Shown piece after piece: positions 1,009-64,000 of a stretch of DNA of 64,000 nucleotides (the first letter of the stretch is position 1; each line of letters starts with the position of its first letter). The notes below the pieces were generated by a model. It worked only from the letters and a program-made list of their open reading frames with translations, made no database searches and was not told where the DNA came from. The position numbers and the translations under genes are program-made. The DNA is taken from positions 1 to 64,000 of the forward strand of contig JBFIML010000020.1 of assembly GCA_041611735.1 (NCBI GenBank), in the 5' to 3' direction. This DNA is from Myxococcota bacterium. Lineage in GTDB: Bacteria > Myxococcota_A > UBA9160 > PR03.

Positions 1009-2211
1009 ATGGCGCAGCTCTCACTGGTGATCGTTTCGGCCCGGGCCCGCCTTCGGGAAGTCTTCGAGGAGACGGGCCACGTGGAGGTGCAGGTCGTTCT
1101 GCCGGAGGCGGCAGGGCTGCTCGGCGCCTTGCGGCGGCATCGTCCGGACGCTCTCTACGTAGACCTCGGCACGGACCCCGAGGGCACGCTCGAGCTGCTG
1201 GAGCGGCTGCCCGCCCCGCGGCCGATCCTGCTCCTGGCGGGCCCCCAGGAGGACAGCTCCCTGATCCTGCGCGCCATGCGTCTCGGCGCCCGGGAGTTCT
1301 TCTCGCCCGTCCCCGCCCCCGAGACCGTCCGGGCGGCGGTCCAGCGCCTGCTCCTCGATCCTGGCGGACGCAGCGTGGCCGCCGTCCGAAAGCTCGGCCC
1401 CGTCGTCGCGGTGATGGGGGCCAAGGGCGGCGTGGGAGCCACCTTCACCGCCTGCCAGCTCGCCGCGGAGCTCGAACGCTCCGGAGCCCACGTGGTGCTC
1501 GTGGACATGAACCTGCGCGTGGGCGACGTGGCGCTCTTCCTGGACGTTCATCCCCGCTACACGCTGGCGAACCTGGCCACGGAGCACGACCAGATCGACT
1601 CGGCCTACCTGCACACGATCCTGGAGCCGCATCGGAGCGGGGTCCGGGTGCTGGCCTCCCCGAGCCGGCCGGAGGAGGCCGACCTGGTGCGGGTGGCCCA
1701 CCTGGAGAAGGCCCTCGGCGTCCTGCGCGAGGAGTTCGACTGGGTGGTCCTCGACGTGCCGCGGAGCTGGGACGAGACCAGCCTGCGCGCCCTGGACCTG
1801 GCCGACCAGATCCTGCTGGTGACCCTGATGGACGTGCCCACCCTGAACCACGCGCGCCAGCACCTGGACCTGCTGCAGCGGCTCGGGCACCCCCTGGAGA
1901 AGATCCGGCTGGTCGCCAACCGCTACTCGGGCTCCGGACCCCTCACCCGGAAGGACGTGGAGGACTTCCTGGGACGGGTCCCCGACGCCCTGATCCCGAA
2001 CGACTACCCGACCGCCCTGGCCTGCGTGAACGAGGGCAAGTCGGTGTGGGAGAGCGCTCCGCGCACCCCGCTGTTCGCCGGTTTCGCCCAGCTCGCCAAG
2101 CACGCCTACGCGTGGTGCAACGTCGCGCCTCCGGCGGAGCGTCCGCGGTCCTGGGGCTTTGGGAAACGCCTGGGCAAGCTGCTGAGAAGGAGCCGCCATG
2201 CCGCTGATTGA
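1009..2211 (+). CDS. cpaE: Flp pilus assembly protein CpaE/TadZ (degenerate receiver + MinD-like ATPase)
   Basis: AMRLGAREF receiver remnant, deviant Walker [15 protein letters not shown]...VNEG; tad context. Confidence 0.88.
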
Positions 2212-3577
2212 CCGACTGAAGCGCCAGACCGTGCGCCCCTCTGCGGCGCTCACCGGAAAGGATGGCGCCGCGCGCAAGAAGGGACCGGAGGAAGCCCCGG
2301 ACACCGCCTACCAGCAGCTGAAGTCGCGGGTCCACATCAAGCTCTTCGACTACCTCGACCTCTCGCGCATGAACAAGGTGAGCGAGGATCGGGTGGCCGA
2401 GGACGTGGCCCTCGCCACCAAGCTGGTCCTCGACGAGGAGAAGGTGCTGCTCACCCTGGAGGAGCGGGAGCGCCTGGTGCGTGAAATCCAGCACGAAGTG
2501 TTCGGCCTCGGCCCCCTGGAGCCGCTGCTGGAGGACGCGAGCATCAGCGACATCCTGGTGAACGGATACAACCAGATCTACGTGGAGCGGCGCGGCAAGA
2601 TCGAGCGAACCGTGGCGCGTTTCAAGGACGACGACCACCTGATGCGGGTGGTGGACAAGATCGTCTCGAGCGTGGGCCGCCGGGTGGACGAGACGACCCC
2701 CCTGGTGGACGCGCGCCTGAAGGACGGCTCGCGGGTCAACGTGATCATCCCGCCGCTGGCCCTGGACGGTCCCACCCTCTCGATCCGCCGCTTCGCGGCG
2801 GACCCCTTCACGGCCGACGACCTGGTGTCCATGGGCACCCTCACCAAGGAGATCGTGGAGCTGCTGACCGGCGCCGTGAAGGCGCGCCTGAACCTGCTGA
2901 TCTCCGGCGGAACCGGCTCCGGGAAGACGACGCTGCTGAACGTGCTGTCGAGCTTCGTCCCCAACAACGAGCGGATCGTCACCATCGAGGACGCCGCCGA
3001 GCTCCAGCTGCGTCAGGACCACGTGGTGCGCCTCGAAACCCGCCCGCCGAACATCGAGGGCCGGGGGCAGATCTCCCAGCGCGAGCTGGTGATCAACAGC
3101 CTGCGCATGCGGCCGGACCGCATCATCGTGGGCGAGGTGCGCGGCGGCGAGGCCTTGGACATGCTCCAGGCCATGAACACGGGCCACGATGGGTCGCTCA
3201 CCACCATCCACGCCAACTCGGCCCGTGACGCCCTGGCGCGCATCGAGACCATGGTCGCCATGACGGGCCTCGAGTTGCCCCAGCGGGCGGTGCGCCAGCA
3301 GCTCTCGTCTGCGATCCAGGTGGTCATCCAGCTGGCCCGCATGAGCGACGGCACGCGGCGGTTGGTGAGCCTGCAGGAGATCACGGGCATGGAGGGCGAC
3401 GTGGTCACCATGCAGGAGATCTTCACCTTCGAGCGGCGTGGCGTGGGCCAGGATGGTGCCGTGCTCGGCGAGCTGGTTCCCACGGGTCTGCGTCCGACGT
3501 TCGCCGAGAAGCTGCGCCTCTCGGGGGTGGAACTGCCCTGGGACCTGTTCGAGCGGCACAGCGCCGCGGCCCGCTAG
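2198..3577 (+). CDS. cpaF: Flp pilus assembly ATPase CpaF/TadA
   Basis: [41 protein letters not shown]. Confidence 0.96.
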
Positions 3578-3585
3578 GGGGAGCC

Positions 3586-4563
3586 ATGGAGCCGATCTTC
3601 CTCGTCCTCGTCTTCCTCACCGTCGTGCTGGCGGCGGAGGGGCTGTTCAACCTGGTGAGCAGCTCGCGCGGCTCGGATCAGCAAAGCCGCGCCCGTCGGC
3701 GCTTGAAGATGCTCGCCGGCCGACTCCAGGCCGTGGAGGTGGCGGCCCAGGAGGGATCGATCCTGCGCGGCATGGACGATGCGCGCCGGACCTTCGGCGA
3801 CTTCTTCCTGAGCCTGCTGCCCAACCGGAAATCACTCGAGCTGCTGCTCTACCGGGCCGGTGTGCCGATGACTCCGGGCCGCTTCCTCAGCACCTCCGCC
3901 CTGCTGACCGTGGGCGGCTGGCTGGTGCTCTCGGCCCTGCGCAACGATCCCGGCGTCGGGCTGCTCGGCCTCTCCGCCGGCCTCGTGCCCTGGTTCGTGG
4001 TGCGGGGCATGGCCAGCAAGCGCATGCGTCAGTTCGAGGCCCAGCTCCCGGAGGGCCTGGAGCTGCTGACGCGCGCCCTGCGCGCTGGACACTCCCTCGG
4101 CACCGGCTTCCACCTGGTGGGCGAGGAGATGGCCGACCCCCTCGGCGTGGAGTTCGCCCAGGTGGCCGAGGAGATCAAGTTCGGCCTCGACATCCGCGGC
4201 GCCCTCATGAACCTGGCCCACCGCATCGACAGCCCGGACGTGCCCTACTTCGTGACGGCCGTGCTGATCCAGCGGGAGACCGGCGGCAACCTGGCCGAGC
4301 TGCTGGACAACCTGGGCAACCTGGTCCGCGAGCGCGCCAAGTTCCACGGCAAGCTGCGGGCCATCACCTCCCAGGGGCGCATGACCGCAGCGATCCTGGC
4401 CATCTGGCCGGCCGTCACCGTGGCGCTCCTGGTGTGGACCCACCCGAAGTACATCCAACCGTTGCTCGAGACCTCCACGGGACACATGGCCCTGCTGATC
4501 GCCGCCGTGCTGTGCGTGGTGGGCTACTTGATCGCCCGACGCCTGGCCGACGTCCGGGTCTGA
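3586..4563 (+). CDS. tadB: Tight adherence protein TadB (T2SSF domain)
   Basis: FEAQLPEGLELLTRALRAGHS, IQRETGGNLAELL; GGGGAG SD. Confidence 0.93.
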   Translation: MEPIFLVLVFLTVVLAAEGLFNLVSSSRGSDQQSRARRRLKMLAGRLQAVEVAAQEGSILRGMDDARRTFGDFFLSLLPNRKSLELLLYRAGVPMTPGRFLSTSALLTVGGWLVLSALRNDPGVGLLGLSAGLVPWFVVRGMASKRMRQFEAQLPEGLELLTRALRAGHSLGTGFHLVGEEMADPLGVEFAQVAEEIKFGLDIRGALMNLAHRIDSPDVPYFVTAVLIQRETGGNLAELLDNLGNLVRERAKFHGKLRAITSQGRMTAAILAIWPAVTVALLVWTHPKYIQPLLETSTGHMALLIAAVLCVVGYLIARRLADVRV

Positions 4564-4581
4564 GGGAGGGACGCAGCCGTC

Positions 4582-5508
4582 ATGAATCTCTTGATCCTCC
4601 TGGTCTTCGGCAGCACCGTCGCCCTGGTGCTCGGCGTGGCGAGCCTGGTGGGGCAGCGGCCCGCCAAGCGCCGTCTCGCCCGCCTGGCGGACGGCTCGGT
4701 GGCGCCCGTTCCCCATACCTTGTCCGAGGACTCGGTGCTGGCGCAGTCGCGGCCCAGCCGCTTCGCGCGGCTGCTGGGCTCCCTGGGACGACCGGGTAAC
4801 GAGAAGGAGACGCAGGCGGCGGGGCGCCTGCGCCAGCGACTGATCCAGGCCGGTTACCGCAACGAGGGCGCCGTGGGCGTCTTCCTGGGCAGCCGGATCG
4901 TCCTGGCCCTGCTGGCGCCGAGCCTGCTGCTGGCCACGGCCTTCGCGACGCTCGAGTCCTGGCGGCTGGTGCCGCTGCTCTTCGCCGCCACGGGTCTCGG
5001 CTACGTGCTGCCGAGCTGGTGGGTGGACCGGCGCAAGAGCTGGCGGCAGGGCCAGGTCGAACGCGGCCTGCCGGATGCCCTCGACCTGATGGTGGTCTGC
5101 GTGGAAGCGGGCTTCGGGGTCAACGCGAGCCTCCAGCGCGTGGCCAAGGAGTTCGCCCCCACCAACCCGGTCCTCTCCGCGGAGATGGAGCTCGTCACCC
5201 TGGAGATCCGGGCCGGCAAGTCCACCGTGGACGCCCTGCGCGGCCTGGCCGAGCGGACCGGCGTGTCGGAGGTCAGCTCGCTGGTGGCCCTGCTCGTCCA
5301 GACCAACCGCTTCGGCACCAGCGTGGCCGACGCGCTGCGTGTGCACGCCGACTCCATGCGCGTGCGCCGCATGCAGAAGGCGGAGGAGAAAGCGGGCCAG
5401 GCGCCGCTCAAGATGATCTTTCCCACCGTGGTGATCTTCCTCGCCACGATGATCGTCCTGCTGACGCCGGCGGTGATCCAGTTCAACGGCATGTTCGAGA
5501 AGAAGTAG
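4582..5508 (+). CDS. tadC: Tight adherence protein TadC
   Basis: LPDALDLMVVCVEAG, RFGTSVADALR, AEEKA...KMIFP. Confidence 0.93.
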   Translation: MNLLILLVFGSTVALVLGVASLVGQRPAKRRLARLADGSVAPVPHTLSEDSVLAQSRPSRFARLLGSLGRPGNEKETQAAGRLRQRLIQAGYRNEGAVGVFLGSRIVLALLAPSLLLATAFATLESWRLVPLLFAATGLGYVLPSWWVDRRKSWRQGQVERGLPDALDLMVVCVEAGFGVNASLQRVAKEFAPTNPVLSAEMELVTLEIRAGKSTVDALRGLAERTGVSEVSSLVALLVQTNRFGTSVADALRVHADSMRVRRMQKAEEKAGQAPLKMIFPTVVIFLATMIVLLTPAVIQFNGMFEKK

Positions 5509-26184: not shown

Positions 26185-27900
26185 TCACCCCGTGCGCTCC
26201 TCCAGGACCGTCTCCACGGCGACCTCGGCGGCGTGGCCCAGGTCGAGATCGCGCTTGTGCCCGTCGCGCCGCCGAACGAACTCCACCTTCTTCTCCTTGA
26301 GTCCGCGCGGCCCGACGGCAATGCGGTACGGAATGCCCACCAGCTCGGCGTCCGTGAACTTGACGCCGGGCCGCTCGTCGCGATCGTCGAGGATCACGTC
26401 GATGCGCTCGGCCCGCAGCGCGTCGTAGAGCTGCTCCGCGGCTTCGGCGCTCGGGACATCCTTCGGGTTCACCACCGTGATCACCACCTCGTAGGGCGCC
26501 ACGGCCACGGGCCAGCAGATGCCCTTCTCGTCGTGGCAGCGTTCGGCGATAGCGGCCATGGTCCGCTCGATCCCGATTCCATAGGAGCCCATCACGATCG
26601 GGACGCTCTGGCCCGCCTCGTCCACCACCGCGGCGCCGAGCGCCTCGCTGTAGCGGGTGCCGAGCTTGAAGATGTGGCCCACCTCGATGGCCTTGGCGAC
26701 GGCGAGCGGGGCGTCGCACAGGCCGCAGCCCTCCCCGGCCGCCGCCTCCCGCAGGTCCAGCCACGCGTCCACCCGGATGTCGCGCTCCACGTCCACGCCG
26801 CGCAGGTGGAAGTCGTCCTGGTTGGCGCCGGTAGCCATGTTGCGCCGCCCCCGGAGCGCCGCGTCGGCCAGCACGCGCACCCCCGCGACCCCCACGGCGC
26901 CGAGGCTCCCGGCCGCGGCGCCGAGCAGGGAGCGGATCTCTTCGGGGTGGGCGGGGCGCAGCTCGAGCCCCCCACTGGCGTCGACCAGCTTCTGCTCGGC
27001 CAGGGCGTGGTCGCCGCGCAGGAGCACCAGGGTTGGCTGGCCGTCGCTCACGTAGACCAGCGTCTTCACCTGCCGCTCCGCCGGCGCGCCGTCCGGGAAG
27101 CGAGCCAGGTCCTCGATGGTGCGAACTCCGGGCGTCGCGAAGCGCTCGGGCCGTTCCGGACCCGGCGGGTCCTGCACCGCCGGCACCTGCGAGGTGGCCT
27201 TCTCCAGGTTGGCCGCGTAGCCACAGCGCGGACAGCTGGCGATGCGGTCCTCGCCGGCGTCGCTCGCCACCATGAACTCGATGGATTCGCTCCCCCCCAT
27301 GGCGCCGGAGGAGGCCTCGACGGCCAAGGTCTCGAGACCTGCGCGCTCGAAGATGCGCCGGTAGGCCTCGAAGTGGAGCTGGAAGGCGCGGTCGAGCCCT
27401 TCGGGCCCGCGGTCCAGGGAGTAGGAGTCCTTCATGGTGAATTCGCGCACGCGGATCAGGCCCGACTTGGGCCGCGCCTCGTCCCGGAACTTGGTCTGGA
27501 TCTGGTACCAGATCTGAGGCAGCTCCCGGTACGAGCGCAGCTCCGACGCCAGGTGCGCGAACACCTCCTCGTGGGTCATTCCCAGGCAGAGCTCGGCCCG
27601 GCGCCGGTCTCGGAGACGGAACATCTCCTCACCCATGGCCTCCCAGCGGCCGGAGCGGCGCCACAGCTCGTCCGGCTGGATGGCCGGGAGCCGGAACTCC
27701 TGGGCCCCGATTGCGTCCATCTCCTGACGGACGATACCGGTGATCTTCTGGCAGACCCGGAAGCCGAGCGGGAGCAGCGAGTACACGCCGGCCATCAGCT
27801 GACGCACGAAGCCGGCCCGCATCAGCAGGCGGTGGCTCACGGCCTCGGCGTCGGCCGGGTCCTCGCGCAGGGTGGGGATGAAGGCGTGGCTCCAGCGCAA
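26185..27900 (-). CDS. proS: Proline--tRNA ligase
   Basis: SHRLLMRAG, THEE, KFRDEARP, REFTMKDSYS, EVGHIFKLGTRYS, MGSYGIG; TTG start after GAGGAG. Confidence 0.97.
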   Translation of the reverse strand: MRWSHAFIPTLREDPADAEAVSHRLLMRAGFVRQLMAGVYSLLPLGFRVCQKITGIVRQEMDAIGAQEFRLPAIQPDELWRRSGRWEAMGEEMFRLRDRRRAELCLGMTHEEVFAHLASELRSYRELPQIWYQIQTKFRDEARPKSGLIRVREFTMKDSYSLDRGPEGLDRAFQLHFEAYRRIFERAGLETLAVEASSGAMGGSESIEFMVASDAGEDRIASCPRCGYAANLEKATSQVPAVQDPPGPERPERFATPGVRTIEDLARFPDGAPAERQVKTLVYVSDGQPTLVLLRGDHALAEQKLVDASGGLELRPAHPEEIRSLLGAAAGSLGAVGVAGVRVLADAALRGRRNMATGANQDDFHLRGVDVERDIRVDAWLDLREAAAGEGCGLCDAPLAVAKAIEVGHIFKLGTRYSEALGAAVVDEAGQSVPIVMGSYGIGIERTMAAIAERCHDEKGICWPVAVAPYEVVITVVNPKDVPSAEAAEQLYDALRAERIDVILDDRDERPGVKFTDAELVGIPYRIAVGPRGLKEKKVEFVRRRDGHKRDLDLGHAAEVAVETVLEERTG

Positions 27901-27957: not shown

Positions 27958-29103
27958 TCAGGCATCCGGATCGAGCAGTGCGAGGACTCCGGTGTAGGTG
28001 AGCAGCTCGGGTCGACCGCTCTGCGCAGCGACCTGACAGGTGCCCGACGCACCCACCACCGCCGCCTTGCCGAAGGCCCGCTCCAGGTAGGCCGCCTCGA
28101 GCCCGGCGAAGCCGAAGAGCTCGGAGCCACCGGCGGCGCAGCCCAGGTGCAAGGCAGCGGCGGGAGCAGTCGCCGCGCACGCTTCGAGAGCGTCTGCCAG
28201 CTCCGCGCGCGCCGCATCCGCGTCGCGCAGCACGAGGGCGAGACGTTGGCCGGGGCGCAGGGCCTCGGGGAGTGCAAGGGCGCGGCGGCGCGCATCGAAC
28301 CCGACCGGGCTGCGGGCCACCCAGTGGCCGTGGCCGACGGTCCGCTCCAGGGCGAGCAGGACGACCCGTGCCGCACGGGGAAGGTCGTCCGCCAGGCGAC
28401 CGCGCGCCGCGGCGCGGTAGACGTCGAGGGCCGGTCGGCCGTCCAGGGCAAGGATCCAGTGCCCGCTGGACCGCGTCACCGCCAGGGGAGACCCGATGCG
28501 CCGGTACGACGGGACCACCGCGACGCGGGGTTGGCGAGGGGCACGTACGAGGAGCGCCGCCAGCCCCCCCTCGACCCGTCGGCCGGCGGCCCAGACCGTC
28601 GCGTGGGCAGCCGTGGCCTCGGCCCCTGCGCCCACCAGCGTTGCGGGCCCGAGGGCGCGGGCCAGGCCTTCGAGGAAGGGGGCCTTCGTCAGGGTGGCGG
28701 GGTCGAAGAAGAGCACCACCAGGTCGCGTCCACCCGGTCCCCCGTCCAGGCAGGCCGCGATCTCCGCTCCGAGAGCCTCCTCGCCACCCCGGACCGGGTC
28801 GACGAGCAGAGCCTGACCCGTGACTCCGCCCAGGGCGAGCACCGCCACGGCGGGGCGGTCCCGTTCCTCTTGGCCGAGAGCGTGAACCGTCCGGGCCATG
28901 AAGCCGGCCGCAGCCGGGGTACCGAGCGCCTTGCCGGCGGCGGCCAGGAGCGGGCCGAGCCCGCCGGCATGGGCTGGCGTGGCGAAGACCAGGGCGGCGT
29001 CGGCCCGGGCCAGGCCCGCCCGTCCGAGGGCCCCCGCCGACGCCTCCCGGGCTGCGAGCCCCGGGTCGACGGCCACCGAGAGCCCCGCTCCCGCGACGAG
29101 CAT
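27958..29103 (-). CDS. FIST N/C-domain signal protein
   Basis: FIST-like motifs (LDGRPALD, LRDADAA, LLTYTGV). Confidence 0.75.
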   Translation of the reverse strand: MLVAGAGLSVAVDPGLAAREASAGALGRAGLARADAALVFATPAHAGGLGPLLAAAGKALGTPAAAGFMARTVHALGQEERDRPAVAVLALGGVTGQALLVDPVRGGEEALGAEIAACLDGGPGGRDLVVLFFDPATLTKAPFLEGLARALGPATLVGAGAEATAAHATVWAAGRRVEGGLAALLVRAPRQPRVAVVPSYRRIGSPLAVTRSSGHWILALDGRPALDVYRAAARGRLADDLPRAARVVLLALERTVGHGHWVARSPVGFDARRRALALPEALRPGQRLALVLRDADAARAELADALEACAATAPAAALHLGCAAGGSELFGFAGLEAAYLERAFGKAAVVGASGTCQVAAQSGRPELLTYTGVLALLDPDA

Positions 29104-29314
29104 GGCGGCCGAGTATAGGACTGGCGCCGCTTCGGGCGTCCTCCCGTGCGGCCCCGGGGATCCGATTTCGATCCACTTCCCGTGGCCTTGCTGGCTATCC
29201 CCCGGGGGGCCAGCTTTCGCCCGCCGCGGGCCTCGGCTACCCTGGGCAGCGCGCGGCGATCGTTCCCTCCTCGCGCCATGTTTCCCCCGTTCGGACGCGG
29301 AGCCGGGACCGCCC

Positions 29315-30475
29315 TTGGCCGACCATCACTTCATCGAGCGCCAGGCCGAGCTCAAGGCGCTGGCGAAGGACCTGCTTCGCGAGCCGGTCGTCGCCATCGA
29401 CACCGAGGCGGACAGCTTCTACCACTACTTCGACAAGACCTGCCTCGTGCAGGTAGCCACGCAAGCCGGCATCTACCTGATCGATCCGCTGGCACTCGGC
29501 GGACCCGCCGCCCTGGCGCCGCTCGGCCCGCTGCTGGCCTCACGCAAGGTCCGCAAGATCTTTCACGCCGCGGAGTACGACCTCTACGTGCTCAAGCGCG
29601 ACTGCGGCTTCCGCTTCGCGGGACTGTTCGACACGATGGTCAGCGCCCAGCTGCTCGGCTACCCCTCGGTGGGCCTGGCCGCGCTGATCGAACGGCACTT
29701 CCAGGTGAACCTTCCCAAGGACGAGCAGCGCTCCGACTGGTCCCAGCGGCCGCTACGCGACAGTCAGCTCGCGTATGCGGCGGCGGACGTGGACCACCTG
29801 ATCGAGCTGGCCGAGCGGCTGGAGGAGGAGCTCCGGGAGCGGGGCCGCCTGGAGTGGGCCCAGGAGGAGTTCCAGACCCTGACGCGCCGGGAGTGGCCGG
29901 CCCGGGAGTTCGACGCACTGGGCTACCTGCGCGTCAAAGGCGCCCGGGCCCTGGATCCCCACGCCCTCGGCGCACTGCGGGAGCTCTACCTGATGCGTGA
30001 TGCGCGCGCCCGGGAGGTGGACCGGCCGCCCTTCAAGGTGCTCGGCAATCGGACGCTGCTGGAGATCGCCCAGGAGCGGCCGCGCAGTCTGAAGGCTCTG
30101 GGGCGCATCAAGGGCGTCTCGGACCTGATTCTGCGGCGGCTGGGCCGGGAGGTTTTGGAAGCCGTGGAGCGCGGGATCCAATCCCCCCATGGGCCGCTGC
30201 CGAGGGGCAACGGGGGCGGGAGACGCCGGATGGACCGACGCACCGAGCGGCGCATGACCCGCATCAAGCGCTGGCGCTCCGAGCGTGCCCGCGAGCTCGG
30301 CATGGACCCGGGCGTCCTGTGTCCCAACACCGCGCTCGAGGCCGTGGCCTGGCGCCGCCCGGGCAGCCCCGCCGAGCTGGCCGAGATCCCCGAGTTGAAG
30401 GGCTGGTTCGTGCGCGCCTTTGGCAAGGAGCTCGTGGGGGCGCTCGGAGACAGCGAGGCCGGCGCGGAGGATTGA
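29315..30475 (+). CDS. rnd: Ribonuclease D
   Basis: AIDTEADS, LVQVA, FHAAEYD, FDTM, SDWSQRPL, YAAADV, HRDC regions; TTG start inferred. Confidence 0.9.
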   Translation: MADHHFIERQAELKALAKDLLREPVVAIDTEADSFYHYFDKTCLVQVATQAGIYLIDPLALGGPAALAPLGPLLASRKVRKIFHAAEYDLYVLKRDCGFRFAGLFDTMVSAQLLGYPSVGLAALIERHFQVNLPKDEQRSDWSQRPLRDSQLAYAAADVDHLIELAERLEEELRERGRLEWAQEEFQTLTRREWPAREFDALGYLRVKGARALDPHALGALRELYLMRDARAREVDRPPFKVLGNRTLLEIAQERPRSLKALGRIKGVSDLILRRLGREVLEAVERGIQSPHGPLPRGNGGGRRRMDRRTERRMTRIKRWRSERARELGMDPGVLCPNTALEAVAWRRPGSPAELAEIPELKGWFVRAFGKELVGALGDSEAGAED

Positions 30476-30487
30476 CAAGGCCTCGGA

Positions 30488-30676
30488 ACGCAAGGGCCCC
30501 CCGCCCTTGGGGACGGGGGGCCGCGTCGGTCTGGCACTCCTCGAGGCCGCCGGTTCTTGGCGGGGTGCCGTTTTGGGGGAAAGCGCCTTGCTTTCGTACC
30601 CGACGCCCCCGAGGATCCGACCCGTCGAACGCGCGCGCCCGCTTGCGTCCGCCGGGGCGTCCAGCCCGGCTTTCTA
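30488..30676 (-). ncRNA. Candidate sigma54-dependent small RNA
   Basis: Lies between a sigma54 motif and a terminator-like hairpin, has two further stem-loops and no ATG; ends are estimates. Confidence 0.45.
30495..30522. terminator. GC-rich hairpin downstream of rnd (possibly also terminates a minus-strand RNA)
   Basis: ggccccccg 30495-30503 / cggggggcc 30514-30522; short T-rich tail only on the minus strand. Confidence 0.6.
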
Positions 30677-30686
30677 CCGGGGGTAC

Positions 30687-30702
30687 AGCAGCTTTCGTGC
30701 CA
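30687..30702 (-). promoter_or_regulatory. sigma54 (-24/-12) promoter motif
   Basis: Minus strand TGGCACGAAAGCTGCT, exact GG-N10-GC spacing. Confidence 0.65.
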
Positions 30703-30891
30703 GAAGCAGCCAGAATCCAGAAGCGACTGATCTTGAATGGCTTTCTTCGCTTCCGCCGGCTGGCGGGATGGGCGCGCCTGCCGCCCGAAGCTGCAGGAAG
30801 AGCGGGGAGCGCCAGCCCCCGGCGACGCGCCCCGTTCAGCAAGTGTTCGATCTACCATTGGTTTCTCTTGCCCTGGGGCAGATGCCTGGGA

Positions 30892-32034
30892 ATGTTGCAG
30901 GGCCTCCGCGGTTTGCGAGTCCCGATCGGCCTGCTCGGGGTGCTGGTGGCCGGGTGCCGGCTGCCGCTGTCGGCGTTCCCCGGAGCGCCTCCGGTCGAGG
31001 CGGCTCGCCAGGTGGCCATCCTCGTGGCGCCTGCTCCGAGCTCCCAGGAGCGCTACTGCGCCTGGTATGGCACGCCTGCCGCCGGAATCCTCTACTTCGG
31101 GATGTCCGCCTTCTGGGCGGCCACCCGTTCCTCGGGCGATCCCACTGCCGACCCGGACCTCCCCGGCCCGCAGCTCCTGGGTCGCTTCCACCTGGCCGAG
31201 GAGCGCTTCCTTGAGCCGCTGCCGACCGGGGCGCCCGAGGCCCGGTCGGGCACCTGGGACGTCCTCGCCCACCCGAACGGGCGCGTCTACTTCACGACCT
31301 TCTTCGAGGCCGCAGGGTGGGTGGATCCGGTCACCGGAGCCGCGCGCCGCTTCGACGAAGCAGGCCTCGGCCTGAACGAGCTCGCCCTGGGCCCGCAGGG
31401 GCAGCTGCTCGTCAGCCGCTATGGGGCTCCGGGCTCCGTCCTCGTGCTGGACGAGGAGGGACGGGTCCTGGCCGAGCACCTGCTCCCGGGCGGCCCCGAC
31501 CACGACGCCGCGGCCAAGAGCGTGGCCTGGGACCCGGTGCGCGAGGAGATCTGGGTGAACACCGACCTGCTACCCCGCCATGGGGGTCCGATCGGGCACG
31601 ACGCCCGCGTGCTGGACGTCTCGAGCGGGCGTGAGCTGCGCCGCGTCGCCCGGCCCGAGGTCCAGTTCGTGGCCTTCGCCGCCGACGGGGCCGGCTATCT
31701 GGCGGAGCGCGACGGCCGGCGACTCTCCCTGCGCGTGCGGCGGGCCGGCCTCGCGGATCCGCCCGAGCGCGGCGGACGCCAGCTGCTCCTGGACGACGCG
31801 TTCCCGGCCTCCTCCGACTTCGTGCAGGACGTGGTGCCGCTCGACGACGGCGGAGCCCTCGTCACCCGCTGGAGCGGAAGATTGCACCGCATCGACCCCC
31901 TGGGCCGGGTCCGCAGCGTGACCCTGCCGCGATTCGACGGGCAGGGTCTCTTCTACACCGCCGTGCTCGCCGACGGCCGCGTGTGCGCGACGCTCTGCGA
32001 TCGGGTGGAGGTGGTCTGCGCGACGGCCCCGTGA
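30892..32034 (+). CDS. Hypothetical lipoprotein, probable beta-propeller
   Basis: Lipobox LVAGC; repeated beta-strand/turn motifs (PNGRVYF, PQGQLLV, DGRV). Confidence 0.65.
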
Positions 32035-41223: not shown

Positions 41224-41847
41224 ATGGGCCTGACCTCCGAGGAACAGAAAATCGCGCGCCTCTGCCTCGGCGCCCTGGGCGTCCTGGGCAGCGGGTCGTT
41301 GATCGGCGTCGCCTTCTCCCTCTACCTGGTCAACCACCAGCCGTTGCTGCTGATCGCGCTGAGCCCGTTGGGACGTCACCTGGTCCTCGTCGCGCCCCTG
41401 GTGGATCCCGTAGCGTTCGTAGCCGTGGCCGTGGGGCGCCGCATGCTCTTCTACCTGGCGAGCTTCTACCTGGGTCGGGCGCTCGGGCCCCTGGGCATCC
41501 CCTGGATCGAGGCGCGAGCGGCCTCCTTCGGGGCCTTCGTACGCTGGCTCGAGCAGCTCTTCTCGCGCGCCCCGAGACTCGTCGTCCTGCTGCTCACCGG
41601 CCCCACGGTGAGTGCGCTGGCGGGGATCTCCGGGATGCGCACGGCCGTGTTCCTTTCGTACGCCACGCCGGGACTCGTGGCACGCATGCTGCTGGTGCTG
41701 GGCTTCGCGGAGTGGGTCCGCGCGTACATCGAGGTCGTGCTGGCCTGGATCGACGAGTACTGGATCCCGGGCACCCTGGTGATGATCGCGCTGGTCGGCC
41801 TCTACCGGTGGCGCAGACGGGTCCCGTCCCGCGTCATGGAGGACTGA
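41224..41847 (+). CDS. DedA-like membrane protein
   Basis: Hydrophobic; YLGR...LAGISGM pattern reminiscent of DedA. Confidence 0.55.
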   Translation: MGLTSEEQKIARLCLGALGVLGSGSLIGVAFSLYLVNHQPLLLIALSPLGRHLVLVAPLVDPVAFVAVAVGRRMLFYLASFYLGRALGPLGIPWIEARAASFGAFVRWLEQLFSRAPRLVVLLLTGPTVSALAGISGMRTAVFLSYATPGLVARMLLVLGFAEWVRAYIEVVLAWIDEYWIPGTLVMIALVGLYRWRRRVPSRVMED

Positions 41848-42110
41848 GGGCCCCGCAGCGCCGGTGACGCGCTGCCCGCGAGCCACCGGCACCACGCCGA
41901 GACCGCCGGGTCCCGGGCGATTCGTGCTTCCAAGCGGTGGAGTTGGCCTCGAGTTGCGACTCCCCGAGGCCCTGGGGGGATCTTCCGGGCGCCACCGGGT
42001 CCCCCTGCAGGGACACCTGGAAGGAGGGAGACGCTACCATCGGGGCTTCCAGGCGTTCCATCGGGCCGGAGACGGGTGGATTCTCGAGCAGCGGGGAAGC
42101 GGCTAGCTGG

Positions 42111-45100
42111 ATGTCGACCCATCCCTCGACGGAGCCGCGAGATCCGGCTGGGGTTCGCCCCGAGCGGCCGAGCACCGGACCCGGGGCCCGACCTGCGTTC
42201 CTGCGGCGCTTCCTGCTGGCGCTCCTCCTCCTGAGCGCGGCCCCGACGCCGGCCGCCGCCATCTCGGATTCGTTCGATGCGGATGGCCCCGTGGACCCGG
42301 CGCGTTGGACCGAGGACGCCGGGAGTTGGAGCGTCGTTTCCCAGCAGCTGCGCGCCGTCTCGGGCCAGACGCCCCTGCTTCGCTACACGGGCGCCCAGAC
42401 CGCGACGGTGGACCAGTACCTGACCTTCCAGATGGTCGTGGAACCGCCCGGCTTCGGTGTGGCGTCCCAGTACTACGGTGGCATGCTGCGCCAGAAAGCG
42501 ACCCCCGGCGGCTCGTTCTACTCCTGCGAGTTCCGCAAGAACAATTCCAACACGGCGATCCGGGCGCTGTGGGGCAAGTGGATCGGAACGCAGTTCGTGG
42601 ACACGCAGGCGTTCGACGATGCCTTCTCCGATTACAGCTTCCCCAAGTACGTGGCCTGTGAGATCGCCGGAAGCGGGCCGGGCACGACCCTCAAGATCTG
42701 GGACTTCGGCGCCACGCCGCCCAACCCCGACCGCTCCCAATGGCCGCCTGCCACGAGGGTGTTCGGTCCGCTCGATGGAGGCGTCGACACCGGCACGTAC
42801 GTCGGATTGATGGGCGACGGGGCCTCGGGCACCTCCGTGCGCTGGGACGACTTCCGGGCGGGCGACGTTCCGGTCACGCCGACGCCGACGCCCACCGGGA
42901 CGCCCACCCCGACCCCGACGCCCACGCCGACCCCGCCGCCGACCGGAACGCCGACCCCGACGCCCACGCCGACCCCGACGCCGACCCCGCCGCCCGGCGG
43001 GGCCCGCGTCAGCAACGGGCTGGTCGTCTTCTATCCCTTCACCGAGGGGGCCGGCAGCGTGGTCGGCGACCAGTCGGGCAATGGGCTGCCCCTCGATCTC
43101 GAGGTCCGCGACGCCGTCGACTGGCAGTCCGGCGAGAACGGCATCGAGCTGAACGGCGGCATCGCACGCAGCGCGGGCCCCGCCAGCAAGGTGATCGACG
43201 CCTTGCAGGCGACCAACCAGAGCACCTTCGAGGTCTGGTTCGTACCCACCGGACTTCCCCAGACCTATCTCTTCCCCCCCGCGCGCCTCATCTCCCTGTC
43301 CCGTGCCACGGACGTCGAGAACTTCCTGCTGGGACAGAACGGCTTCCTCCCGGGTGGTCAGGAAACGAGCGCGGACGCCGTCGCATTCCTGCGCCACACC
43401 AGCAAGGACAGCCTGAATCGTCCGCACCTGGAGGCGCCCGCGGCGATCTCAACCGCACAGGCTCTCACCCATCTGGTCCACACCTACGACGGCACGACCG
43501 AACGCCTCTACGTGAATGGCCTGGAGCATCCGACCACGGTCACGCTGACCGGTAGCTATGCGAACTGGTACTCGGATGCGTACTTCCAGGTTGGCAACGA
43601 ATCCGACCTGCAGAGTCGCGCCTTCCTGGGAACCGTGCGCATGGTGGCCGTCTACGACCGCGCACTCACCGCGGCGGAGGTGCTCCAGAACTTCGCGGCG
43701 TCCCCGGACGCGCCGATCCGGCCCCGGGTGGAGACGGGCCCCGACCGGGCCACGCCCGAGGCACCCGGCGCGCCGGCCCACACCGTGGAGGTCGCGGGCT
43801 GGGTCATCGACGACGGGCTGCCCGATCCGCCGGCTGGACTGACGACCACCTGGACCACGGTCTCCGGCCCCGGGAACGCGGTGTTCGGAGACCCGTCCGC
43901 CCAGCAGACCAGCGTGCAGTTTCCATTGGACGGCATCTACGTGCTCCGCCTCCAGGCGGATGACGGCGCCTCGGTCGGGAGCGACGACGTCCAGGTGGTG
44001 GTGAACCAGGCTTCGCCCACCCTGCCGGCACCTACCCACGTGGCGCCCGCCGATCAGGCTGCGTCCGTGTCCACCACGCCGACGCTCGAAGTGGCTTGTC
44101 CGGTGCCCGGGGCCGCTGCCGCGCAGTACCTGATTGCCGAGGACGCGGCCTTCGACTCGATCGTCTACGACAGCGGCCCCACGCCCAACGACCCGTGCAG
44201 CCACGTCGCCTTCGCCGCGCTCCGGGGCGGACGCGAATACCACTGGAGCGCTCGACTCCAGGATGCCAGCGGGCTGCGCTCGCCCTGGTCGACCCCGACC
44301 CGCTTCTCCACGTTGCCGAACGCCCTGCTCTCGACGGTCGCCCTGCGGGACGGCGTGAACGGGTATGCCGGAAGCGGGGATGCGGACATCCGGGGCGACG
44401 CGAACGATCCGAGCCAGGCGATCCTCGAGTGGAACCAGGGCGCCCAGGACGTGCTGCGCGTCGGTCAGCGAACCTTCGCGTCCGAGATCATGCGCAGCTT
44501 GATCCGCTTCGATGTCTCGAGCATCACGGACCCCAACGCCGTCGTGAATGCCCGGCTCGAACTCACGGGCTGGATGCACGGGCCGAGCTTCCTGTTCGAA
44601 AGCCCGAGCTCCCTGTACGAGGTCCTCGGCTCCTGGGGGGAGGGCGACGGGATCGAGAACGTGGCCCCCCAGCCCGGGGAGGTGAGCTGGACGTATCGGG
44701 AGTTCCCGACGCCCTGGTCGAGCCCAGGCGCCTCGGGCCTCGGCAGCGACCGCTCCGCAAACCCGCTCGCGCGAGGAACCTTGACCAACCGGCTCCATCA
44801 CAAGACCTACTGGTCGAGCCAGGCGTTCGTGAACGCCGTGAAACAGTGGATCGCGCAACCCCAGACGAACTTTGGCCTGTTGATCCAAGCCGACGACGAG
44901 TCGATCAAGAAGCTCGTGAACCTCTCACCCCGCGAGCATCGAGACGAGGAGTTTCGACCGCGTCTGGTGATCGAGCTGGCGGGCGTTCCCGCCTGCAGCG
45001 ACGGCGTCGACAACGACGACGATGGCCTGGTCGACCTCGCCGACGCTGGCTGCCGCAACGCGAGCGACCTCTCCGAGGTGCCCGACTGTCAGGATGGCCT

Positions 45101-45404
45101 CGACAATGACGAGGACGGGCTCCTCGACCATCCCGCGGACCCGGGCTGCGGCGGTGCCGGCAACTTCCGAGAGGACCCGGCCTGCGACGACGACCTGGAC
45201 AACGACGGCGACGGGGGCATCGACTGGGACGGCGCGGGTGTCGGCCCGGCGGATCCGCAGTGCGGCGCTGGCTGGGCCCGGAGCGAGGCCCCCCAGAGCT
45301 GCGGGATCGGCTTCGAGCTGGCGCTGCTGCTGCCGCCCCTGATCTGGCTGCACGGCCGCCGCAGGCGGGCAGCGGAGCGAGCCAGCGCGGGAACGCTGAG
45401 CTAG
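42111..45404 (+). CDS. Large secreted modular surface protein (PT linker, LamG-like, PKD-like, Fn3-like, DNRLRE-like, Cys/Asp repeats, C-terminal TM anchor)
   Basis: Signal peptide; THLVHTYDG..RLYVNG and VYDRALTAAEV (LamG); DDGLP..VSGPG..YVLRL; RSLIRFD; CxDGxDNDxDG x3. Confidence 0.8.
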   Translation: MSTHPSTEPRDPAGVRPERPSTGPGARPAFLRRFLLALLLLSAAPTPAAAISDSFDADGPVDPARWTEDAGSWSVVSQQLRAVSGQTPLLRYTGAQTATVDQYLTFQMVVEPPGFGVASQYYGGMLRQKATPGGSFYSCEFRKNNSNTAIRALWGKWIGTQFVDTQAFDDAFSDYSFPKYVACEIAGSGPGTTLKIWDFGATPPNPDRSQWPPATRVFGPLDGGVDTGTYVGLMGDGASGTSVRWDDFRAGDVPVTPTPTPTGTPTPTPTPTPTPPPTGTPTPTPTPTPTPTPPPGGARVSNGLVVFYPFTEGAGSVVGDQSGNGLPLDLEVRDAVDWQSGENGIELNGGIARSAGPASKVIDALQATNQSTFEVWFVPTGLPQTYLFPPARLISLSRATDVENFLLGQNGFLPGGQETSADAVAFLRHTSKDSLNRPHLEAPAAISTAQALTHLVHTYDGTTERLYVNGLEHPTTVTLTGSYANWYSDAYFQVGNESDLQSRAFLGTVRMVAVYDRALTAAEVLQNFAASPDAPIRPRVETGPDRATPEAPGAPAHTVEVAGWVIDDGLPDPPAGLTTTWTTVSGPGNAVFGDPSAQQTSVQFPLDGIYVLRLQADDGASVGSDDVQVVVNQASPTLPAPTHVAPADQAASVSTTPTLEVACPVPGAAAAQYLIAEDAAFDSIVYDSGPTPNDPCSHVAFAALRGGREYHWSARLQDASGLRSPWSTPTRFSTLPNALLSTVALRDGVNGYAGSGDADIRGDANDPSQAILEWNQGAQDVLRVGQRTFASEIMRSLIRFDVSSITDPNAVVNARLELTGWMHGPSFLFESPSSLYEVLGSWGEGDGIENVAPQPGEVSWTYREFPTPWSSPGASGLGSDRSANPLARGTLTNRLHHKTYWSSQAFVNAVKQWIAQPQTNFGLLIQADDESIKKLVNLSPREHRDEEFRPRLVIELAGVPACSDGVDNDDDGLVDLADAGCRNASDLSEVPDCQDGLDNDEDGLLDHPADPGCGGAGNFREDPACDDDLDNDGDGGIDWDGAGVGPADPQCGAGWARSEAPQSCGIGFELALLLPPLIWLHGRRRRAAERASAGTLS
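42870..42995 (+). repeat. Pro-Thr linker-encoding hexamer repeat
   Basis: (ACG/ACC CCG/CCC)n encoding PTPTPT. Confidence 0.9.
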
Positions 45405-61625: not shown

Positions 61626-63128
61626 ATGGATCCCTGCCCCTCCCTGTGGAAAGGAGTGCTCCGCCGCTTGGCGTCGGAGCTGCCGCCGATCGCCTTCGAG
61701 GCGTGGCTGCGGCCCCTGGCCGCCGAGCCGGATGGGGACGGCCTGCGCCTGCTGTGCCCTTCGCCGTTCCACCGCGACCGGGTGCGCGAGCGCTACCTGG
61801 CGAAGATCGTCGAATGCGCCGCCCGGGAGGGAGGGCGCCGGGTCCCGGTGAGCCTCGACGTGCAGGCGTCGGACCGGGAGGCGGCGCCCGCCGGAAACGC
61901 CTCCCCCGGGGCTCCGACACGGAGCGTCTCGGGCCGCGACGGGCGCAGCCCCGAAGCCGCGGCGGGTGCGACGCGGGTCGCCCCTCGTGGTCCGGGGCGG
62001 GACGCCGCCGGCTGCACGCCCCAGCGGACCCTGCCCTACACCTTCGAGACCTTCGTGGTCGGGCGCTGCAACGCCCTGGCCCGGGAAGCCGCCCTGGCCC
62101 TGGCCCGGGGCGGACAGCTGGCGCTGAGCCCCCTCTACCTGCTCTCGGCACCGGGGCTCGGCAAGACTCACCTGGCCCGCGCCGTGGCCGCCGAGGCCGC
62201 CGCCGGACGGGCCGTGAGGACCCTGTACGCCTCCGCGGAGCACTTCACCAGCGAGTTCATGGCCTCGATCCGCTCGCGGCGCACCGCCGAGTTCAAGCGG
62301 CGCTTCCGCGAGCAGTGCGACCTGCTGGTGGTCGACGACGTGCATTTCCTGGCCAACAAGGTGTCCACGCAGCTCGAGTTCTTCCACACCCTGGAGCACC
62401 TGCGCAGCGTCGGGGCGCATGTCGTGCTGACGGGCGATCGGCTGCCGAAGCAGATCTCGGGCCTCGACCCGTGTCTCGAGTCCCGTCTCGCCAGCGGCCT
62501 CGTGGCCGAGATCGAGCCCCCGGACGCCACCGTGCGCCGACGGATCCTGCGCACCAAGGCGGCTGCCGGCGGCGTGCGGCTGCCCGACGACTGCCTGGAC
62601 CGGCTCGTGGAGGCGGTACGCGGCAGCGTGCGCGACCTCGAGAGCGTCCTGATCCAACTGGTGGCCAGCGCGTCGCTGCTCAAGCGATCCATCGACCTCG
62701 AGCTGACGGAGGCGGCGCTGCGCAAGCTCTTCCCGGCCCCGACGCGCTGCGGCCAGCTCGAGCCCGCCGAGGTGATCGAGGTGGTGTGCGCGTTCTTCGG
62801 CTTTCCCTCCCAGGCGCTGGCCTCCCGCTCACGGCGGCGCGACGTGCTGATCCCGCGGCAGATCGCCATGTACCTGTGCCGCCGCTACACCGGCGCCTCC
62901 CTGAAGGCCATCGGCCGCGCCCTGGGGCGAGACCACCCCTCGGTGACGAACGCCGTCGCCGCCATCGAGCGCCTGATGCTGGAACGCGTGCCCCTGCGCT
63001 ATCAGGTGGAGGCGCTATCGGACCGCCTCGACGGTCGCAGCGGGAGCGGTGCCGGAGCAACGGGTACGGGCCACCTCGGGTCCCCGCGCCCAGGAGTACA
63101 GCCCCCGCAGGCCCCGACCCCGGCCTGA
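61626..63128 (+). CDS. dnaA: DnaA-family replication initiator paralogue (domains I-IV)
   Basis: YTFETFVVG, GLGKTHL, DLLVVDD, EFFHT, PRQIAMYL, RDHPSV; no dnaN downstream. Confidence 0.85.
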   Translation: MDPCPSLWKGVLRRLASELPPIAFEAWLRPLAAEPDGDGLRLLCPSPFHRDRVRERYLAKIVECAAREGGRRVPVSLDVQASDREAAPAGNASPGAPTRSVSGRDGRSPEAAAGATRVAPRGPGRDAAGCTPQRTLPYTFETFVVGRCNALAREAALALARGGQLALSPLYLLSAPGLGKTHLARAVAAEAAAGRAVRTLYASAEHFTSEFMASIRSRRTAEFKRRFREQCDLLVVDDVHFLANKVSTQLEFFHTLEHLRSVGAHVVLTGDRLPKQISGLDPCLESRLASGLVAEIEPPDATVRRRILRTKAAAGGVRLPDDCLDRLVEAVRGSVRDLESVLIQLVASASLLKRSIDLELTEAALRKLFPAPTRCGQLEPAEVIEVVCAFFGFPSQALASRSRRRDVLIPRQIAMYLCRRYTGASLKAIGRALGRDHPSVTNAVAAIERLMLERVPLRYQVEALSDRLDGRSGSGAGATGTGHLGSPRPGVQPPQAPTPA

Positions 63129-63193: not shown

Positions 63194-64000
63194 CTAGCCG
63201 GCCGCAGCCGCCGGCTCGCGCCGCCAGCGCCGCGGGCCACTCTCCGGTGCGCGGCGGTCCGGCTCGAGGGAGGCGGGATCCCGGGCCGGATCCTCGAAGC
63301 GGCGAAGGATCTCGTACCGGGTGCTGCGCTCGGCTGGTACGCGCCCCATCTCCCGGATGAGCCGGCGGATGTCTTCGGCCGGAAGGTTCTCGCCGAAGTC
63401 GGCCCCCGACTCGCGGCTGATGGACTCCTCCATCAGGGTGCCCCCGAAGTCGTTGGCGCCGGCCAGCAGGCCGAGCTGGGCCAGCTTAGGACCCATCTTC
63501 ACCCAGGAGACCTGGATGTTGGGGATCCAGGGTCGCAGGAACAGACGTGCCACGGCCAGGAGGCGCACGTCCTCCGGCGCGGAGGAGCCGGGCCGGGCCC
63601 CCAACTCCTGGAACAGCCGGTTCAGCGAGTGGATGAAGCCGAGGGGCACGAACTCCGTGAAGCCGCCGGTCTCCTTCTGGAGCTCCCGGAGGAGCGCCAG
63701 ATGGTTCGCCACGTGCTCGACCTCCTCGATGTGCCCGTACATGAGCGTCGCCGTGGAACGCAGACCGACGCCGTGCGCCGCCTTGACGATCTCCACCCAG
63801 CGATCGCGCATCAGCTTGCGAGGGGCGATGATCCGGCGGATCCGGTCGTCCAGGATCTCGGCCGCGGTGCCGGGAATCGTGCCGAGCCCTGCTTCCTGGA
63901 GCCATCGCAGGTAGTCGGCCAGCGGCATGCCGCTCTTCTGGTGGCCCCAGTCGATCTCCTCGGGCGAGAAGGCGTGGATGTGCAGGTCCGGGAAGGCGCG
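63194..64000 (-). CDS. cofH: CofH-like radical SAM protein (FO synthase subunit 2 / MqnC-E family), 5'-partial
   Basis: HIHAFSPEE, PGTAAEILDD, TLMYGHIE, FTEFVPLGF, NIQVSWVK, NDFGGTLMEESISR. Confidence 0.8.
   Translation of the reverse strand, partial: RAFPDLHIHAFSPEEIDWGHQKSGMPLADYLRWLQEAGLGTIPGTAAEILDDRIRRIIAPRKLMRDRWVEIVKAAHGVGLRSTATLMYGHIEEVEHVANHLALLRELQKETGGFTEFVPLGFIHSLNRLFQELGARPGSSAPEDVRLLAVARLFLRPWIPNIQVSWVKMGPKLAQLGLLAGANDFGGTLMEESISRESGADFGENLPAEDIRRLIREMGRVPAERSTRYEILRRFEDPARDPASLEPDRRAPESGPRRWRREPAAAAG

Follow-up and report, generated by a model that had tools for sequence, protein, structure and literature searches.

A conserved gene for a small RNA, read from the minus strand and preceded by a sigma54-type promoter, very probably lies between rnd, which encodes an RNase D-like protein, and a lipoprotein gene of a Myxococcota bacterium. 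The DNA analyzed, here called the window, comprises the first 64,000 nucleotides (nt) of contig JBFIML010000020.1 from assembly GCA_041611735.1 (forward strand, 72% G+C), in which the gap between the two genes measures 416 bases (30476-30891). Judged from its sequence, the RNA is a new family of a known kind, the enhancer-dependent small RNA, without a match in Rfam 15. A preliminary description made from the letters of the window had proposed a sigma54-dependent, structured RNA on the minus strand of this gap, and that proposal is supported by the promoter, by covariation, by an excess of G-U pairs and by the U tracts of related loci.

Relatives were gathered by a genome scan with the RNase D protein; 454 were confirmed, and the best 80 of these 454 were kept. 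These 80 are Myxococcota or "Deltaproteobacteria", mostly metagenome-assembled, with RNase D proteins at 56-73% identity, and no near-identical genome is among them. All locus counts given below cover rnd-linked loci in the window and these 80 relatives. Two covariance models were used, namely R1, seeded with five close relatives whose consensus fold holds every helix, and R2, built from 57 R1 sequences.

Conservation, promoter and strand

BLASTN of the intergenic region revealed a block, from 30559 to ~30651, that recurs just downstream of rnd with its orientation kept, the first ~30 bases of the block being 90-97% identical. With blastn-short, matches were obtained in 58 of the 80 loci at E <= 1 and in 49 at E <= 0.01. 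R1 found one match per locus, always on the strand opposite to rnd, in 56 of the 80 loci and in the window at E <= 1e-4 (window match 30519-30676, 63.4 bits, E 7.9e-11). R2 found 66 of the 80 loci and the window at E <= 0.04, with 64 of those loci at E <= 2e-5, and scored the same interval of the window at 101.8 bits (E 8.1e-19). All 67 R2 matches are on the minus strand, and the match stands directly downstream of rnd in all 66 loci. The gene order rnd - RNA - (lipoprotein) - pepP - acs is maintained in relatives.

The promoter and the start predicted from it are placed as follows.

30702-30687, minus strand: sigma54-type -24/-12 promoter TGGCACGAAAGCTGCT, within one mismatch of TGGCACGNNNNTTGCW, at a conserved position
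30676, minus strand: predicted transcription start, 12 nt past the -12 C by promoter geometry and identical with position 1 of the covariance-model match

A single sigma54 site in the window is, taken alone, weak evidence and only mildly unusual: three matches with at most one mismatch to TGGCACGNNNNTTGCW occur in the window, versus 0.42 expected, and three were reached in 2 of 100 shuffles. The site is convincing because it is conserved in relatives. A minus-strand sigma54 motif with at most two substitutions precedes the RNA in 66 of the 67 R2 matches, the exception being N-masked, and the promoter named in the preliminary description can on this evidence be regarded as real. The motif is also present at all 57 R1 matches and, at fixed spacing, in 48 of the 49 BLASTN loci (E <= 0.01), where the remaining one is N-masked. 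In a simple motif test, a sigma54 motif was followed by GGGCGCG[CT] within 110 nt in 71 of the 80 loci and in the window. Between the predicted start and the conserved block lie 112-129 nt in most loci; two loci have 167 nt there, and one has 77 nt. The -24 GG and -12 GC elements of enhancer-dependent small RNAs are found, at the proper spacing, directly upstream of the RNA; TGGCACGNNNNTTGCW served as the sigma54 consensus, and WATCAA-N4-TTR serves below as the consensus for integration host factor (IHF). A simple scan of 30300-31000 returned no sigma70-like promoter.

The strand is fixed by the G-U excess, the polarity of the U tracts and the orientation of the promoter together. On the minus-strand reading, the paired positions hold 200 G-U or U-G pairs versus 67 A-C or C-A. 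On the minus strand, the terminator hairpin runs into a U tract (at least 4 U in 9 nt) in 30 of 67 cases, and an A run before the hairpin was seen in 4 of 67; on the plus strand, these U tracts appear in many loci as an A run preceding the hairpin on the rnd side. At the five seed loci, R1 scored at most 26.8 bits on the plus strand versus 135-185 bits on the minus strand.

The transcript contains no ATG, which confirms what the preliminary description had said of the sequence downstream of the promoter. Relatives show 1-2-nt insertions and deletions inside the most conserved part of the RNA, and the rnd-lipoprotein gap lacks the codon-position G+C bias that is present in both flanks. On these three grounds a peptide gene is excluded. 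Chance was likewise rejected as an explanation. Like other sigma54-dependent small RNAs, the RNA is non-coding and has a terminator of its own, the hairpin being present in all loci, with a weak tail in the window.

At gathering thresholds, Rfam 15 gave no match in the window or in 15 related loci, in agreement with the earlier view that the RNA is unannotated. The best Rfam score at loose thresholds was that of CC1840, a Caulobacter small RNA with a similar GC-rich two-hairpin outline; at 21.8 bits (E 1.5), below its gathering threshold of 50, it was rejected as a chance match, and PhotoRC-I (E 3.5 at loose thresholds) was also taken as chance. Literature searches with strings of the conserved core, in either orientation, found nothing relevant. 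Alignments A4 and A5, together with models R1 and R2, could be deposited as a new RNA family.

The two other sigma54 matches in the window lie far from this gap. A near-consensus motif, TGGCACGCATGCTGCT, is located at 41678-41693 on the plus strand, ~245 nt upstream of a 1155-amino-acid open reading frame (ORF; 41937-45404) with Laminin_G_3 and DNRLRE domains and acidic double-disulfide repeats, which may be a sigma54-dependent gene for a secreted or surface protein. The other, TGGCACGTCTGTTCCT at 63537-63552 on the minus strand, has a spoiled -12 element, falls within a minus-strand ORF (63194-63928, CofH/MqnC C-terminal domain) and is probably due to chance.

Fold of the RNA and its variant forms

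The RNA is modelled as a three-way junction (P1, P2 and P3) followed by an intrinsic terminator, with a predicted total length of ~190 nt (30676 to ~30487-30494), the same length that the preliminary description had suggested. Its parts are listed below.

30519-30676, minus strand: structured body P1/P2/P3 (~155 nt), from the R1 and R2 matches and pair counts
30661-30669 (5' strand) with 30527-30534 (3' strand), minus strand: closing helix P1, in which 8 of 8 pairs show double changes
30618-30659, minus strand: P2 hairpin, from comparative structure
30633-30640, minus strand: invariant apical GGGCGCGC of P2 (the GGGCGCG loop), conserved in relatives
30600-30615 (5' strand) with 30538-30553 (3' strand), minus strand: helix P3, helices 8-11 all with double changes
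30559-30590, minus strand: near-invariant 32-nt core CAAGGCGCUUUCCCCCAAAACGGCACCCCGCC, enclosed by P3, the most conserved block of the region
30570-30583, minus strand: C-rich tract within the core, predicted unpaired, including UUUCCCCCAAAA
30495-30522, minus strand: terminator hairpin, followed at 30487-30494 by a weak tail that contains U, 20 nt past the stop codon of rnd

Pair counts were taken from a 57-row alignment that was fitted to the model and thus leans to structure. In this alignment, standard pairs make up 87.8% of 2481 cells, versus 67.9% in column shuffles and 33-43% when the 3' partners are slid by 1-3 columns. Changes on both sides are seen in 39 of 46 pairs, and double-change cells number 514, versus 157 +/- 12 in shuffled data (none of 500 shuffles reached 514). 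An alignment-free control, restricted to the 43 of 57 rows in which all anchor motifs were located, compared the pairing of each 5' arm with the 3' arm of its row and with those of the other rows. For P2, cognate arms gave -25.3 kcal/mol versus -14.7 for non-cognate arms, and the cognate arm ranked best of 43 in 23 cases; the corresponding values for P3 were -18.9 and -13.7 kcal/mol, with the cognate arm best of 43 in 12 cases. MAFFT followed by RNAalifold (46 sequences) recovered P1, P2 and the terminator, with compensatory changes in 26 of 33 pairs. This approach missed P3 because the variable arms were misaligned, a fault that was cured by the five-relative seed model.

P3 is hypervariable in sequence and conserved in pairing, and it is visible in single-sequence folds of nearly every relative. 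Almost invariant AGGCG/CGCCU pairs possibly close the core; since they hardly vary, covariation neither supports nor refutes that helix. The fold energy of the window RNA alone (189 nt) is only suggestive, at -107.2 kcal/mol versus -93.9 +/- 4.9 for shuffled sequences (z -2.72; 4 of 200 shuffles did as well).

Lack of conservation of the promoter and stems in orthologous intergenic regions, which the preliminary description had named as a refutation, was not observed, and the comparison favours the proposal, yet the conserved helices differ from those drawn there. Of its three stem-loops, the terminator hairpin stands, and the first two had been given the wrong partners. In the proposed gacgcccc/ggggcgtc stem, the 5' arm belongs to P2 and the 3' arm, GGGGCGUC, to the 5' strand of P3; in the proposed GGCAC/GUGCC stem, GGCAC is part of the invariant core and its claimed partner is not conserved in relatives. 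The C-rich UUUCCCCCAAAA (30582-30571), described as apparently unpaired, fared better, as it falls inside the most conserved block and is predicted unpaired in the models too.

Variant forms of the RNA were found among the relatives. In eight loci missed by R2 (L030, L034, L049, L051, L053, L056, L059 and L062), the promoter, the 5' strand of P1 and P2 with its GGGCGCG loop are retained, and a hairpin, CCAGGAG...CCCCUCCUG, replaces the core; the 3' arm of this hairpin, CCCCUCCUG, looks anti-Shine-Dalgarno-like. Two weak R2 matches (L048 and L069) bear the variant hairpin too, and both modules, core and variant hairpin, are present in L034, L047 and L076. In four loci (L012, L022, L061 and L067), another gene follows rnd and the RNA is absent, and in two (L064 and L065) the contig ends before the RNA site could be read. 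A quick tree of RNase D groups the variant forms with the double forms (clade SH-aLRT 95). It unites three of the four RNA-less loci in a second clade (100) and places the window in a clade of seven (99) whose members all have the standard form. It follows that the RNA has been passed down together with the locus and that exchange of modules has reshaped it.

Two further loci, each on a long RNase D branch, depart from the standard form in P2. In L066 (2420-2531, minus strand; a record titled Geobacter sp. metagenome-assembled genome, with low G+C flanks), P2 is absent, and in L078 (5240-5391, minus strand), P2 is present without the GGGCGCG loop.

Control region and possible modes of action

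Three candidate control elements were recognized upstream of the promoter.

30779-30795, minus strand: proximal enhancer-like palindrome TGC-N11-GCA, 93 nt upstream of the -24 T; candidate site
30883-30899, minus strand: distal enhancer-like palindrome TGC-N11-GCA, overlapping the lipoprotein start codon (30892); candidate site
30721-30743 (core 30726-30738), minus strand: IHF-like, A/T-richer tract AAGCCATTCAAGATCAGTCGCTT; candidate site

Of the 66 loci, 44 have an exact TGC-N11-GCA within the stretch 60-200 nt ahead of the -24 T, versus 0.049 expected per region. Positions ~80-115 and ~174-198 nt upstream are favoured, and about ten loci carry both, as does the window; these predicted sites thus lie where upstream activator sites of sigma54-dependent small RNAs are expected (about 80-200 bp from the promoter). 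The 17-bp frame agrees with the one in the E. coli NtrC consensus TGCACCAnnnTGGTGCA (PMC8743547). No particular activator is named here, because many NtrC-family activators could use a TGC-N11-GCA site. As the distal palindrome covers the lipoprotein start codon, the lipoprotein and RNA genes may share regulation. With at most one mismatch, WATCAA-N4-TTR is present in 14 of the 66 loci, against an expectation of 0.0035 per region, and its start always lies 37-41 nt ahead of the -24 T. The IHF-like tract of the preliminary description (30743-30721) was therefore correctly positioned, although the sequence of the window itself fits poorly.

We consider that the RNA is probably an enhancer-dependent, trans-acting small RNA whose C-rich tract pairs with Shine-Dalgarno regions and whose synthesis depends on an NtrC-family activator and IHF. 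In such a system, the activator would bind at the palindromes, be looped onto the sigma54 holoenzyme by IHF and turn the RNA on; nitrogen or starvation as the inducing signal is a guess from the shape of the palindromes. At the tip of P3, the P1/P2/P3 scaffold would keep the near-invariant C-rich tract (CUUUCCCCC...GCACCCC) free of pairing. Base-pairing of this tract in trans with the G-rich Shine-Dalgarno regions of a number of mRNAs would block their translation, and Hfq would not be needed. With its invariant GGGCGCG loop, P2 may make a further contact, either to a protein or to another RNA. The intrinsic terminator is shared tail-to-tail with rnd. Pairing with ribosome-binding sites is proposed because the C-rich tract is both the most conserved part and unpaired in the models, because the variant hairpin looks anti-Shine-Dalgarno-like, and because Pxr, a small RNA of Myxococcus xanthus, is described as pairing near the Shine-Dalgarno sites of several mRNAs (10.1101/2025.09.11.675593).

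Several points weigh against this interpretation. The RNA, its start and its sigma54 control are predictions from sequence, and the pair counts carry the bias of a model-fitted alignment. No Sigma54_activat domain was detected in the 37 ORFs scanned, which cover part of the window; in relatives, no Sigma54_activat gene is among the first two ORFs past the RNA, where lipoprotein, pepP and acs genes are found. The exact palindrome is absent in 22 of the 66 loci, and the IHF-like copy of the window, in the same place as those of relatives, is weak, with 3 mismatches. A simple scan of 30300-31000 returned no canonical terminator, the window hairpin being missed because its U tract is poor. RNAduplex of the core against the whole window yielded the self-complement and then a continuum from -37.5 kcal/mol, with no target above GC-rich noise; the scan is uninformative because the genome is 72% GC. 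Lastly, the 32-nt near-invariant block and the invariant 8-nt loop exceed the need of a 6-12-nt seed, and a partner of fixed identity, whether protein or RNA, is indicated as much as many mRNAs are.

In view of this excess length of the conserved parts over a seed, the main rival is that the same sigma54-driven RNA works through a protein that it binds, serving as a decoy, sponge or scaffold, with the core and the GGGCGCG loop as recognition sites. GlmY, CrcZ and 6S RNA illustrate that structured RNAs, sigma54-linked or other, are able to act on proteins. Two separate invariant elements on a covarying scaffold would suit such a role, as would the retention of the GGGCGCG loop even in the variant without the core, and no mRNA target was seen in the duplex scan of the window. 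However, the repeated motif typical of sponges is absent, and no candidate protein is encoded alongside, where rnd, lipoprotein, pepP and acs genes are found. Furthermore, the core has been swapped for another C-rich hairpin in one clade, which exchangeable seed modules explain more easily. We regard protein binding as possible but unlikely.

Action in cis on the convergent rnd, through read-through antisense or polymerase collision and with structure serving stability only, would account for a tail-to-tail arrangement that is constant in all 66 loci and for the weak terminator tail of the window. A regulatory loop is also conceivable, given that RNase D processes Pxr in M. xanthus (PMC10217877). 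Nevertheless, a strong hairpin separates the RNA from rnd everywhere, with U tracts in many relatives, and the invariant core lies at least ~85 nt outside rnd, with no requirement for complementarity to it. Since the covarying helices and invariant loops would also be left unexplained, we hold a cis role to be very improbable. Scarcely credible is an element of a plus-strand transcript, either the rnd 3' untranslated region or the 5' leader of lipoprotein-pepP-acs. Both flanking genes are on the plus strand, the helices are formally possible on either strand, and R1 gave weak plus-strand scores (16.8-26.8 bits) at five of the small-RNA loci, but the ratio of G-U to A-C pairs, the minus polarity of both sigma54 promoter and U tracts, and the minus-strand position of every R2 match all oppose this, and no Rfam cis-element matched.

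Neighbouring genes and relation to known small RNAs

The protein-coding genes closest to the RNA, together with proS, are placed as follows.

26185-27900, minus strand: proS, by Pfam
29258-30475, plus strand: rnd (RNase D-like), with DNA_pol_A_exo1 and two HRDC stretches by Pfam; convergent with the RNA
30892-32034, plus strand: lipoprotein gene with lipobox LVAGC, divergent from the RNA and followed by pepP and acs

The rnd product matches TIGR01388 with E 4e-70, yet it falls below the family cut-off. Its frame is open from 28898, ~140 codons precede the first Pfam domain, and 28898-29300 has 73-82% G+C, leaving the start codon uncertain. The lipoprotein (30892-32034) has no match to any Pfam or NCBIfam family; it is 44-54% identical to the product of the gene in the same place in 22 related loci. 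Elsewhere in the window, a Tad/Flp-pilus-like cluster at 1009-5508 (plus strand) encodes a ParA/MinD-like ATPase, a T2SSE ATPase and a T2SSF membrane protein. A dnaA gene (DnaA_N, Bac_DnaA and Bac_DnaA_C) is located at 61626-63128 (plus strand), and the chromosomal replication origin may accordingly lie near the right end of the window.

As a putative trans-acting, sigma54-controlled RNA, the rnd-linked RNA can be compared with several known systems. GlmY/GlmZ of enterobacteria and Qrr of Vibrio are the textbook enhancer-dependent small RNAs, and Rfam includes their families. Shared features are a sigma54 promoter, upstream activator sites, IHF-assisted looping, a terminator of their own and a length of 100-200 nt, with the control of the rnd-linked RNA being predicted; fold and conserved motifs differ, no Rfam family having matched the window or its 15 relatives. 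NrsZ of Pseudomonas aeruginosa and other NtrC/sigma54-dependent small RNAs likewise have a sigma54 promoter with NtrC-type upstream sites. The likeness of the rnd-linked RNA, with its TGC-N11-GCA frame, to NrsZ lies in promoter layout. RsaE/RoxS of Firmicutes carry conserved unpaired C runs that are thought to pair with G-rich Shine-Dalgarno regions without Hfq; the presumed mechanism is alike, whereas phylum, promoter type and architecture are unrelated.

Pxr, a developmental small RNA that blocks development, is the only studied myxobacterial sigma54-dependent small RNA in the literature found. It is described as 108 nt in three successive stem-loops (PMC5568312, PMC5684412, PMC11928866), located between pxrR (nla19) and Mxan_1080 and reported only from Cystobacterineae (PMC5568312, PMC11928866). 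Its promoter is predicted to be of the sigma54 type, with an enhancer region further upstream and an activator resembling NtrC (PMC5684412, PMC5568312). The rnd-linked RNA belongs to the same phylum and is also non-coding, with a predicted sigma54 promoter, an enhancer region and a terminator stem at its end. It is not Pxr, however, because place, size and fold differ: it has ~190 nt and a three-way junction, and it stands beside rnd and lipoprotein/pepP/acs, with no activator gene adjoining, rather than beside pxrR. In M. xanthus, rnd (MXAN_5981) is described as co-transcribed with an M1 peptidase gene, a neighbourhood unlike that of the window locus. According to a preprint (10.1101/2025.09.11.675593), M. 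xanthus has no Hfq and Pxr contacts several mRNAs near Shine-Dalgarno sequences; the further candidate small RNAs named there could not be mapped to the rnd-linked family.

Two observations nonetheless connect the RNAs. The 5' part of Pxr, GAAGGTGGTTCCCCCC, known from primers (Table S1 of PMC5568312), resembles CAAGGCGCTTTCCCCC in the core of the rnd-linked RNA. When scored with a weight matrix built from columns 1-16 of the core, GAAGGTGGTTCCCCCC obtains 6.0 bits, which 32 of 1,379,096 background positions (2.3e-5) reach, for a sequence that is short, C-rich and of low complexity. In addition, RNase D processes Pxr-XL to Pxr-L in M. xanthus (PMC10217877), and the rnd-linked RNA always adjoins the rnd gene. 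The two RNAs may thus be kin, a lead from a comparison limited to 16 nt of primer-derived Pxr sequence. A bolder version, which we think rather doubtful, would see in the rnd-linked RNA the old form, present throughout the phylum, of the Pxr lineage. On that view, Pxr of the fruiting Cystobacterineae would have arisen from it by copying, relocation and shortening, with the sigma54 promoter and the AAGG-N3-UU-C5 hairpin retained, and its need for RNase D would go back to an early association of the RNA family with the nuclease encoded next to it. If this were true, a regulator thought to have appeared late, together with multicellular development, would descend from a far older RNA that predates such development and has exchangeable C-rich seed modules.

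In sum, myxobacteria possess dozens of sigma54 activators, yet the literature found describes one studied sigma54-dependent small RNA, Pxr. The constant position beside rnd and the likeness to the first Pxr hairpin make the origin of Pxr and its dependence on RNase D testable questions. Collectively, a second and much wider small-RNA family, with a readable control region and a supported fold, would offer a handle on Hfq-independent riboregulation in this phylum.

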